A stretch of 27,048 nt of DNA, taken from positions 1 through 27,048 of the forward strand of contig JACTMV010000308.1 in the NCBI GenBank assembly GCA_014584455.1, given 5' to 3'. Position 1 is the stretch's first letter. Each line of letters begins with the position of its first letter. The notes under the pieces were generated by a model. The model searched no databases and had not been told where the DNA came from. It was given only the letters and a program-made list of their open reading frames with translations. This document shows positions 11,558-12,565 of this stretch, in pieces. Source of the DNA: Pseudomonadota bacterium. GTDB lineage: Bacteria > Myxococcota_A > Polyangia > Haliangiales > Haliangiaceae. The translations under genes and the position numbers were made by a program.

Positions 11558-12565
11558 TCAGTTGGAGGTGGCGCCGGCGCTGGCGCTGATCTCGGCCGAG
11601 ACCTCGATCGAGACCGAGATCCGGGCCTCGATCTGGGCGGCGGCGGCGAAGGCGGCGCCGAGCTGCAGGCCGACGCAGACCGAGCGCTCGCCGAGGTCCT
11701 TGGCGAGCTGGCCGGAGGCCTTGATGAGGCGGCCGAGGGTCTGCGCCCACAGCACGATCGCCTTGCCGGTGAGCTCGGCCCGCTTGCCGACCTGGAGGAT
11801 CGTCGGCATGCCGGCGTCGATGGCGCGCATCGCCGCCTGGAACTTGGTGTCGTCGACCACCGTCACCTGCTCCTGGACGACGCGGACCCGCGGCTCGCTG
11901 CATTCGGTGCGCAGGCTGGCGCGGAGCTCGGCCGAGGCCTTGCACTCGGCCGAGGCGTCGACCGAGGCGTAGCCGCGGCAGTCGGCGGAGCAGCGGCCAC
12001 GGCAGGTGCCCTGGCACACGCCGTTGCACTCGCCGCCGGCGCCGGTCGAGCCCTGGCACGCGCCGTCGCAGGTGCCGGAGCAGGTGCCGCCGCAGGTGCC
12101 CTCGCAGGTGACCGCGACGTCGGCCTGGACCCGGGCCTCGCACTGCGCGACCACCTCGGCCGCGAAGTCGACCTGGGTCGTGCACACCGGCGGGTCGTAG
12201 CGGGTGACCATCCGCGTCTCCTGGCTGACCGAGACCTGCAGGTTGGCCTCGAGCGCCTGGGCCGCGGCCCGGCACACCGTGCGGGTGTCACCGTCGGGCG
12301 AGACCCCAAGCTCCCGCGCCATCTCGCGACAGGCGTCGCGCACCGAGCCCTCGAGCTCGAGGGTGCGGCGGTCGAGCTCGGCCGAGGCGACCAGGAACTG
12401 GTGCAGCCGGCGCCCGACGTCGGAGGTCGAGATGTTGCCGCAGGCGTCGGGATCGACGGCGGCGCCACCGCCGCCCCCGCCCGGGCCTCCGCCGCGTGGC
12501 GGCGGTCCACAGGCGATCAGGGTGGCGACGAGCGAGGTGAGGACGAGCACGCGAATCGAGGACAT
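11558..12565 (-). CDS. Cys-rich lipoprotein with a central C-x3-C ladder (335 aa), unknown function
   Basis: Met35 of track ORF 11558..12667. Shine-Dalgarno GGAGGG lies upstream. MSSIRVLVLTSLVATLIAC-G is a signal peptide plus lipobox, followed by a Gly/Pro linker. The central stretch is CEGTCGGTCSGTCDGACQGSTGAGGECNGVCQGTCRGRCSADC. Flanking segments look helical, and there are about 20 Cys in total. Confidence 0.75.
   Translation of the reverse strand: MSSIRVLVLTSLVATLIACGPPPRGGGPGGGGGGAAVDPDACGNISTSDVGRRLHQFLVASAELDRRTLELEGSVRDACREMARELGVSPDGDTRTVCRAAAQALEANLQVSVSQETRMVTRYDPPVCTTQVDFAAEVVAQCEARVQADVAVTCEGTCGGTCSGTCDGACQGSTGAGGECNGVCQGTCRGRCSADCRGYASVDASAECKASAELRASLRTECSEPRVRVVQEQVTVVDDTKFQAAMRAIDAGMPTILQVGKRAELTGKAIVLWAQTLGRLIKASGQLAKDLGERSVCVGLQLGAAFAAAAQIEARISVSIEVSAEISASAGATSN

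Follow-up and report, generated by a model that had tools for sequence, protein, structure and literature searches.

Introduction

Disulfide-stapled beta-hairpin peptides have been described as a general class (PMC7761999, PMC10968102). The closest known principle to the architecture considered here is that of tachyplesin, polyphemusin, and gomesin and of the cyclic cystine ladder of the theta-defensins, in all of which parallel disulfides connect two antiparallel strands. On each strand of tachyplesin and gomesin, Cys residues occupy positions i and i+4, and CxxxC spacing also occurs in the helices of the copper-storage proteins (Csp). A Cys at every fourth residue likewise defines the tandem repeat 'tSAM_targ_Cxxx' (TIGR04114/PF27846), and some members of the family described below have been tagged as such automatically. 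Here we analyzed a stretch of 27,048 nucleotides of a Haliangiaceae genome (contig JACTMV010000308.1, assembly GCA_014584455.1; hereafter the window), in which a gene on the minus strand at positions 11558-12565 (hereafter the target) encodes a lipoprotein with cysteines arranged as mirror images along the chain. We consider it rather probable that, taken as a whole, this is a lipoprotein with a protruding hairpin and a ladder of seven disulfides, forming a length-tunable scaffold on a conserved core and lacking a conserved gene neighborhood.

Mirrored cysteine pairs and hairpin register

The gene and the parts of its product that form the putative ladder are as follows.

11558-12565, minus strand: complete coding sequence of the lipoprotein with candidate cystine-ladder hairpin, 335 codons plus stop (open reading frame (ORF) list, G+C content at third codon positions (GC3), homologues, and ratio of nonsynonymous to synonymous substitution rates (dN/dS))
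12056-12106, minus strand: N-terminal ladder arm (N-arm), residues 154-170, C-EGT-C-GGT-C-SGT-C-DGA-C (invariant Cys and Gly, AlphaFold2 (AF2) strands 152-158 and 161-174, mirror partners)
12029-12055, minus strand: tip loop, residues 171-179, QGSTGAGGE (sole site of insertions and deletions (indels) in the close subfamily, 25-sequence alignment)
11978-12028, minus strand: C-terminal ladder arm (C-arm), residues 180-196, C-NGV-C-QGT-C-RGR-C-SAD-C (invariant Cys, AF2 strand 179-192; strand 195-202 begins at the end of the arm)

The protein contains 19 Cys (5.7% of its residues), ten of which make up a run of constant spacing (154, 158, 162, 166, and 170 on one arm; 180, 184, 188, 192, and 196 on the other). 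Together with the flanking pairs 142/208 and 128/222 they form a symmetric set of 14; an initial annotation of this DNA had recognized the near-constant spacing but counted 12 Cys in the central run. The set resolves into seven pairs with a constant position sum of 350 (128/222, 142/208, 154/196, 158/192, 162/188, 166/184, and 170/180), and the outward series of spacings (4,4,4,4,12,14) is identical on both arms. All 19 Cys, as well as the Gly of every C-x-G-x-C, were invariant in 25 aligned homologues (58-84% identity). Each of these homologues also retained the seven mirror pairs, because indels were confined to the tip loop, the length of which ranged from 7 to 12 aa in this alignment and was mostly 8 aa family-wide (tip entropy 1.65 bits).

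When 18 Cys were placed at random, at most five mirror pairs arose, and five were reached in 39 of 20,000 trials, as compared to the seven of the target. Since periodicity alone gives some symmetry, the argument for a hairpin rests on equal rung numbers per arm and on mirrored irregular spacings. Both were observed in relatives with longer ladders, in which the two arms carry equal numbers of rungs and irregular spacings are mirrored exactly. The relative P0236, for example, has the series 4,4,6,4,4,6,4,4,4,4,8,6,4,9,9,6,4,10 on each arm, and P0188 has 4,4,4,8,4,4,4,4,4,10,6,4,9,9,8,4,10 on each arm. Residues other than Cys follow the same register: the three pairs of non-Cys positions with the strongest mutual information (MI) after average product correction, T117-Q231, D124-R228, and D124-R226, lie on the same antidiagonal (sums 348-352) and connect the N-terminal to the C-terminal side of a region that we term the collar. 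The constancy of the sums, the restriction of indels to the tip, the mirrored spacings, the antidiagonal covariation, and the secondary structure predicted by AF2 all agree with the register of a cystine-ladder beta-hairpin. The pairing of the two ladder arms in mirror register is strongly supported by these observations, and so is the hairpin that the initial annotation had proposed from the near-symmetric layout.

Fold and regional conservation

An AF2 model built from 150 sequences (predicted local distance difference test (pLDDT) 85.4, predicted template modeling score 0.80) consisted of elements mirrored about residue 175. These were strands 161-174/179-192 and 152-158/195-202, helices 132-143/206-218, and strands 120-124/226-230, flanked by helices 49-86 and 94-111 on one side and 239-282 and 294-330 on the other, in keeping with the alpha-helical segments that had been noticed earlier outside the ladder. 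A model from only 25 sequences was poor (pLDDT 59). According to the confident model, the mirrored hairpin is predicted to protrude from a four-helix base. The regions surrounding the ladder are listed below.

12233-12442, minus strand: N-terminal helical arm, comprising Cys42, helix alpha1 49-86 (with Cys79), a loop, and helix alpha2 94-111 (with Cys98) (AF2 pLDDT 92-98; C42, C79, and C98 invariant)
12107-12232, minus strand: N-side collar, residues 112-153, with strands 120-124 and 128-131, helix 132-143, Cys128, and Cys142 (AF2, entropy 0.90-0.96 bits, covariation)
11852-11977, minus strand: C-side collar, residues 197-238, with the rest of strand 195-202, helix 206-218, and strand 226-230 (AF2, entropy 0.75-0.88 bits, antidiagonal covariation)
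11624-11851, minus strand: C-terminal helical arm, with helix alpha3 239-282, a short helix 284-291, helix alpha4 from 294, and Cys297 (AF2, covariation)
11561-11623, minus strand: conserved C-terminal tail, residues 315-335, RISVSIEVSAEISASAGATSN (lowest regional entropy, mean 0.67 bits)

Covariation of L277 with F306 and of T266 with I316 indicates that alpha3 and alpha4 form an antiparallel hairpin. Cys208 and Cys222 of the C-side collar, which is among the most conserved regions, mirror Cys142 and Cys128 of the N-side collar. Within the subfamily of the target, entropy was 0 bits at the ladder Cys and Gly, 1.6-1.9 bits at the residues between them, and 0.75-0.9 bits in the collar, which makes the ladder surface the least conserved structured part of the protein. 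The tail had been read correctly in its sequence but called low-complexity, and its entropy identifies it as the most conserved segment. It displays a strict alternation of hydrophobic residues with Ser or Glu, is present in both long-ladder and ladder-less relatives, and was modeled by AF2 as a helix with confidence declining from 78 to 61.

Gene, export signal, and location

Two further features lie at the N-terminus of the product.

12509-12565, minus strand: signal peptide and lipobox, residues 1-19, MSSIRVLVLTSLVATLIA followed by C (sequence, conservation of C19)
12443-12508, minus strand: Gly/Pro-rich flexible tether, residues 20-41, GPPPRGGGPGGGGGGAAVDPDA (sequence, AF2 pLDDT, entropy)

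The N-terminus reads MSSIR-VLVLTSLVATLIA-C19, with a positively charged n-region, a hydrophobic h-region, and the lipobox L-I-A-C at residues 16-19, so that the signal peptide ends in the lipobox pattern [LVI][ASTVI][GAS]C. Cys19, the predicted lipidated +1 residue, was conserved in at least 90% of homologues, and a lipobox was present in 276 of 333 full-length family members; the protein had thus rightly been called a lipoprotein. The segment that follows showed high entropy (1.77 bits), and AF2 pLDDT was below 50 at residues 16-32. The +2 residue is Gly in the target (as is +7) and mostly Pro or Gly family-wide, never Lys. In M. xanthus, Lys at +2 marks inner-membrane lipoproteins and Ala at +7 marks matrix lipoproteins (PMC3222651). 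By this rule the target would not be retained in the inner membrane, because its +2 residue is Gly and not Lys, and the analogy tentatively suggests that it probably resides in a membrane other than the inner one.

Translation starts at the ATG at 12565 and ends at the stop codon 11558-11560 on the minus strand, yielding a product of 335 aa. The homologues in the 25-sequence alignment share the same start Met, and a GGAGGG motif resembling a Shine-Dalgarno sequence lies at 12569-12574 (minus strand), 3 nt upstream of the ATG. The reading frame has a GC3 of 0.96 and a G+C content at second codon positions (GC2) of 0.57, a coding signature also seen in the neighboring genes (the window has approximately 75% G+C). 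Values of dN/dS against eight orthologues were 0.34-0.77 and are probably overestimated, because the extreme GC3 suppresses synonymous change. The target is a real, conserved gene of a predicted myxobacterial envelope lipoprotein. The ORF, strand, and coordinates of the initial annotation were right, and its peptide strings, including lipobox, Gly/Pro linker, and tail, were exact.

A longer, GTG-initiated ORF extending to 12667 (34 codons upstream of the ATG) was rejected as the start, as it overlaps the start codon at 12633 of the divergent gene. The start of the homologues at the ATG and the GGAGGG ribosome-binding motif preceding it indicate that the extension (12566-12667, minus strand) is not translated.

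Family and variation in ladder length

A word-indexed search retrieved more than 343 homologues of approximately 335 aa (57-100% identity), and when 1.84 billion cluster representatives were searched with a profile, 689 clusters were retrieved at E ≤1e-3. With a long-ladder member as query more than 2,100 proteins were found, and with a ladder-less member more than 530. All of the homologues are named 'hypothetical protein' or, occasionally and automatically, 'modification target Cys-rich repeat protein'. They derive from metagenome-assembled genomes (MAGs) of Kofleriaceae, Haliangiales, Sandaracinaceae, Polyangiaceae, Myxococcales, or 'Deltaproteobacteria', and the 90% cluster of the target includes the Kofleriaceae MAG protein MBE7453515.1. 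The only match outside Myxococcota was a 54-residue fragment (L059, 15-176) that is 52% identical to the C-side collar plus alpha3; it lies on a 2-kb contig binned as Gemmatimonadetes, which may be a binning error. In one protein (P0137; 831 aa, 74 Cys) two complete modules are naturally fused in tandem, and both of them have helical arms, a ladder of approximately 15 rungs, and a tail.

Among 339 complete members, gathered before the search with the ladder-less relative P0152 and biased by the choice of queries, mirror pairs were distributed as follows.

2 mirror pairs: 11 of 339 members
3-6 mirror pairs: 6 of 339 members
7 mirror pairs: 137 of 339 members
8-13 mirror pairs: 44 of 339 members
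14-15 mirror pairs: 121 of 339 members
16-19 mirror pairs: 20 of 339 members

Several strong relatives of approximately 285-300 aa lack the ladder but retain helices, collar, and tail together with the eight core Cys. In P0122, encoded on a 1.1-kb contig, the ladder is cleanly absent, and in P0152, P0156, and P0158 a Gly/Ser loop takes its place. Within the P0152 subfamily, 82 of 120 members had only the two collar pairs (median 298 aa) and 38 had 6-7 pairs (median approximately 342 aa), the two forms being intermixed at 44-68% identity. As read from these sequences, a conserved core of approximately 285-300 aa may or may not carry the ladder as an insertion, the length of which varies (putatively 0 to about 17 ladder rungs in relatives). 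The DNA coding for one arm is itself repetitive.

12062-12110, no strand: 12-nt tandem DNA repeat coding for the N-arm rungs, 4.1 copies with 83% match (Tandem Repeats Finder)

It is plausible that this repeat serves as a substrate for the gain and loss of rungs.

Database searches assigned the target to no named family, as the initial annotation had already stated: Pfam returned no match at E up to 1 (in a release without PF27846, which also returned nothing for relatives tagged PF27846), NCBIfam gave nothing above threshold, a sequence search of the PDB gave no relevant match, and Foldseek gave no match at E ≤0.001, with nothing resembling the ladder. No description of the family, or of a bacterial cystine-ladder lipoprotein, was found in the literature.

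State of the ladder cysteines

Mirrored spacings were even in 2,919 of 3,160 cases (92%), and where odd values (9, 13) occurred, their position was always the same, close to the base. A beta-ribbon needs all of its Cys on one face and therefore calls for even spacings, which a helical Cys stripe would not show. Of 4,844 rungs, 84% had Gly and 13% had Ala at the center, a position that shares its face with the Cys, and the other two rung positions were occupied by S, T, E, N, or D, without His. The number of Cys following the lipidated one was even in 231 of 276 members (84%). Because the protein is exported, its Cys parity is even, the rung center is Gly or Ala, and His is lacking, cross-strand disulfides appear favored over metal sites. 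Of the two options in the initial annotation, a disulfide-stapled or a metal-binding hairpin, we therefore retain the first. The four Cys outside the mirrored set (Cys42, 79, 98, and 297) recur family-wide in a constant '3 + 1' arrangement, and a Cys79-Cys98 bond across the alpha1/alpha2 loop is plausible.

It is unlikely that the target is a thiolate protein for metal binding or storage, in which facing pairs of reduced Cys on the two strands would bind Cu(I), Zn, Cd, or Hg, as in metallothioneins or the Cys-lined Csp bundles. Such a protein would explain the high Cys content and the regular CxxxC arrays, and thiolate sites of the two-coordinate type could likewise be formed by mirrored pairs; the initial annotation had raised the option. 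However, the target is predicted to be a lipoprotein exported to an oxidizing compartment, and the Cys count is even in 84% of members. The ladder has neither His nor Met, nor any CxC, CC, or CxxC clusters, and its obligatory Gly or Ala at the rung center, together with the even spacings, describes a beta-ribbon rather than a helical Cys stripe. In addition, ladder-less members keep the core, so metal storage cannot be the core function of the family, and no conserved metal-handling genes were found near the family loci.

We also regard as improbable that the ladder is a redox-responsive element, either a redox sensor of the envelope or a disulfide reservoir that works reversibly, in which reduction would unzip the rod and alter the activity of the core. 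The idea draws on the many exposed disulfides that would be carried by a ribbon without a core, the stability of which might be set entirely by its oxidation state. Yet neither thioredoxin-fold nor Dsb genes were conserved near the family loci, the CxxC motif typical of redox-active sites is absent, and ladder-less and 19-rung versions coexist within the family.

A role as substrate of a radical-SAM (or other) maturase, which would convert the Cys into thioether or other cross-links, is very doubtful. The association of TIGR04114/PF27846 with radical SAM maturases is presumably what the model name implies, and the period of four is indeed present, with five Cys per arm at spacing 4 in the target and up to approximately 14 per arm in relatives. 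The target itself gave only a sub-threshold match to this 18-residue repeat model (10.7 bits, E = 0.62). Among the relatives scanned, six scored 14.3-18.1 bits (14-18 bits for those with 15-19 rungs) and one had no match, so that none reaches the 20 bits set as curated cutoff. A precomputed PF27846 tag and a JGI name to the same effect are attached to some relatives; in P0083 the precomputed match is flagged as 'weak'. No radical SAM gene is encoded in the window, and among 10 distinct Pfam-annotated contexts a single one (L010) contained such a gene, 2.5 kb away and within a Memo/AMMECR1/radical-SAM trio. Moreover, Sec exports lipoproteins unfolded and maturases of this kind act in the cytoplasm, and the mirrored pairing is explained without a maturase.

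Genomic neighborhood

The genes and intergenic regions around the target are the following.

7609-8871, plus strand: MscS-type channel (Pfam)
9000-11537, plus strand: major vault protein (MVP) homologue, 845 aa (Pfam; MVP_shoulder E = 2e-25, Vault_3 E = 8e-8)
11538-11557, no strand: convergent gap of 20 bp to the stop of the MVP gene at 11537 (sequence)
12566-12632, no strand: divergent intergenic region of 67 bp, common to the target and the VIT-P_proprotein-vWA gene (contains the GGAGGG of the target)
12633-15092, plus strand: exported protein (signal peptide) with VIT, P_proprotein, and VWA_2 domains, hereafter VIT-vWA (Pfam)
15098-15880, minus strand: M50B peptidase (Pfam)
15964-16539, minus strand: second Cys-rich lipoprotein, 191 aa (no Pfam match in the release scanned)

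The remaining genes of the window are unrelated to the target. None of the target, MVP, VIT-vWA, M50B, and second Cys-rich lipoprotein matched the defence models of PADLOC. Consensus scans, which are uninformative at 75% G+C, detected no sigma-70-type promoter in the 67-bp divergent region and no intrinsic-terminator-like hairpin in the 20-bp convergent gap.

The neighbor proteins of the window were searched for in family loci retrieved by exact-protein look-up (10) and from GTDB species genomes (49), of which 53 were non-redundant. Counting duplicates, 8 of the fetched loci contained MVP, 9 contained VIT-vWA, and 11 contained M50B. In every such locus the homologue shared at least 76% identity with the target and belonged to one Haliangiaceae/Kofleriaceae lineage, and none of the three genes was found within 6-8 kb in any of the 40 non-redundant loci with a homologue of at most 66% identity. 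Even within the lineage the neighbors vary independently: MVP occurred without VIT-vWA in two loci (L005, L013), VIT-vWA without MVP in three (L009, L016, L017), and in L007 MVP lay 3.6 kb away with four genes inserted between. The position between MVP and VIT-vWA is therefore lineage-local synteny and not a functional module.

It is accordingly most improbable that the target is a functional partner of MVP, of VIT-vWA, or of both, co-regulated from the divergent promoter. The tight spacing speaks for such a partnership (the gaps of 20 bp and 67 bp given in the initial annotation are exact), as does the recurrence of the arrangement in several related MAGs. On the other hand, this co-location is confined to close homologues, among which MVP and VIT-vWA have been lost or separated independently, and by sequence MVP has no signal peptide whereas the target is exported, which would place the two in different compartments. 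Neither the shared regulation with VIT-vWA that had been suggested earlier nor a tie to MVP is supported by these patterns, and a divergent promoter shared with VIT-vWA, although conceivable in this one genome, has nothing in its favor.

Unbiased clustering of the flanking ORFs yielded no recurrent neighbor of the family, and the neighbors at three long-ladder loci were unrelated too. The target gene thus behaves as a stand-alone unit. A cluster that seemed to span 33 loci in the all-against-all clustering of flanking ORFs was rejected as a conserved neighbor, since its members were heterogeneous and linked by chaining. The seed kinase was matched by no more than 10 kinase-like ORFs, drawn from 10 loci, and these differed in architecture, distance, and orientation.

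Several side observations were made on the surrounding genes. A gene of the phosphoglucomutase/phosphomannomutase family lies less than 3 kb from the ladder gene in two unrelated long-ladder loci, one from a Polyangiaceae MAG (L061, 9377-10744) and one from a 'Deltaproteobacteria' MAG (L062, 5130-6509); two cases are too few to judge. MVP, here a bacterial homologue of the eukaryotic protein, is 87-90% identical in related MAGs and thereby more conserved than the target in the same genomes (76-86%). The G+C content of the MVP region (0.68-0.70) is below that of its flanks because of a low GC2 (0.42), with a GC3 of 0.99. VIT and vWA are the domain pair of the eukaryotic vault partner VPARP, and the gene with VIT, P_proprotein, and vWA domains (12633-15092) lies approximately 1.1 kb from the MVP gene. 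Homologues of the second Cys-rich lipoprotein are tagged PF28386 'BfoA_C' in a newer Pfam, and each of the 10 related loci that contained this lipoprotein had the M50B gene along with it; a literature search on 'BfoA' returned nothing relevant. Finally, the C-terminus of a DEAD-box helicase gene (21593-21700, minus strand) encodes, at the end of a DEAD/Helicase_C protein, an uninterrupted stretch of approximately 24 Gly followed by RRRRR.

Proposed architecture and significance

We propose that the target would be a lipoprotein of Kofleriaceae-type Myxococcota, processed by Sec, Lgt, and LspA and cleaved at Cys19, with the mature chain tethered to the membrane by a flexible Gly/Pro stretch of approximately 22 residues. 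The mature chain would form one long up-and-down hairpin in three parts, namely a four-helix base (alpha1/alpha2 plus alpha3/alpha4), a conserved mixed alpha/beta collar in which residues 112-153 pair with 197-238, and, at the tip, a protruding two-stranded antiparallel beta-ribbon (154-196). In this ribbon every fourth residue would be a Cys facing its mirror partner (C170-C180, C166-C184, C162-C188, C158-C192, and C154-C196), while C142-C208 and C128-C222 would staple the collar. The periplasmic oxidation machinery would then close the seven pairs as parallel disulfides that span the two strands like the rungs of a ladder. Between one Cys and the next, the Gly would lie on their face and leave space for the bridges, and the opposite face would be polar and variable. 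This would give a rigid rod that has no hydrophobic core; at 3.3-3.4 Å per residue, the estimated length of the ladder is approximately 7 nm in the target and approximately 20 nm in the 15-rung forms. Rungs would be gained or lost symmetrically, a change that the 12-nt DNA repeat may ease, and specific interactions would be located in the conserved collar, base, and C-terminal tail. From anatomy and conservation we infer that the ladder may be a rigid, disulfide-built, and length-tunable scaffold that acts as a spike or spacer at the predicted cellular location.

Four points weigh against this architecture. Part of the mirror count would arise trivially in any periodic array. A long two-stranded ribbon without a hydrophobic core is unusual, and oligomerization may be needed. 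Cys42 and Cys297 appear, from the helix geometry of the model, to be far apart and may be free or bonded intermolecularly; covariation assigned no partner to either of them, both being invariant and MI too noisy at an effective number of sequences of 58. Lastly, the sorting rule used for its location comes from M. xanthus, which belongs to a different class of Myxococcota.

More broadly, and with the balance of our judgment leaning somewhat against it, the family could represent an undescribed envelope class, so far found only in Myxococcota of the class Polyangia, in which a conserved lipoprotein core displays a core-free nanorod with up to approximately 17-19 consecutive cross-strand disulfides and a length from 0 to approximately 20 nm, tuned by symmetric gain and loss of 4-residue rungs and serving as ruler, spacer, or spike. 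If so, no longer cystine ladder would be known from nature, and stiff protein rods would have been found to be built in a new way. If the ladder is as the sequence statistics say, bacteria make long, stiff, and polar rods from disulfide rungs alone, the length of which evolution alters in symmetric steps. Such a ladder would be both a principle of protein architecture and a template for length-programmable, protease-resistant scaffolds. The family, with its thousands of members that are all 'hypothetical', also offers an entry point to the poorly known envelope of uncultured Kofleriaceae and Polyangia. As to the neighboring bacterial MVP gene, the tempting link to it has been removed, and that gene merits a separate study.

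Comparison with known systems

The ClyA/Nhe/Hbl/Ahl fold and flagellin/FlgL-type proteins resemble the target in that long N- and C-terminal helices pack together and carry a hairpin or domain inserted at the far end. That the target is a ClyA/Hbl/Nhe-like alpha-pore-forming toxin, with the ladder in place of the hydrophobic beta-tongue, is nevertheless scarcely credible, as neither Pfam (at E up to 1) nor the PDB sequence search linked it to the ClyA/HBL proteins and neither a specific fold match nor a hydrophobic beta-tongue was found.

Csp copper-storage proteins and metallothioneins are likewise Cys-rich. In Csp, however, a four-helix bundle has Cys along its core, whereas the target carries them, evenly spaced and paired in mirror fashion, on a Gly-rich beta-ribbon, and ladder-less relatives exist. 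Braun's lipoprotein (Lpp) offers a functional analogy only, as a small, lipid-anchored, rigid, and elongated envelope protein the length of which could matter. Lpp differs in being a trimeric coiled coil linked to peptidoglycan, without disulfides and without homology to the target family, and there is no evidence that its length has varied in evolution as that of the target family has. TIGR04114/PF27846 shares the tandem repeat with a Cys at every fourth residue but is an 18-residue repeat model without characterized function, in which the helical core, the collar, and the tail are not described.

The closest principle is that of the tachyplesin-type peptides and theta-defensins, which differ in that they occur as free animal peptides, are cationic and membrane-active, and have 2-3 rungs within 17-18 residues. 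The target, by comparison, has 7 pairs (up to 19 in relatives) within a 335-aa bacterial lipoprotein with a helical base, a polar and near-neutral surface, and an obligatory Gly at each rung center. The family is thus uncharacterized and without a solved structural counterpart; the principle of the disulfide-stapled hairpin is known, and its scale here is unprecedented.

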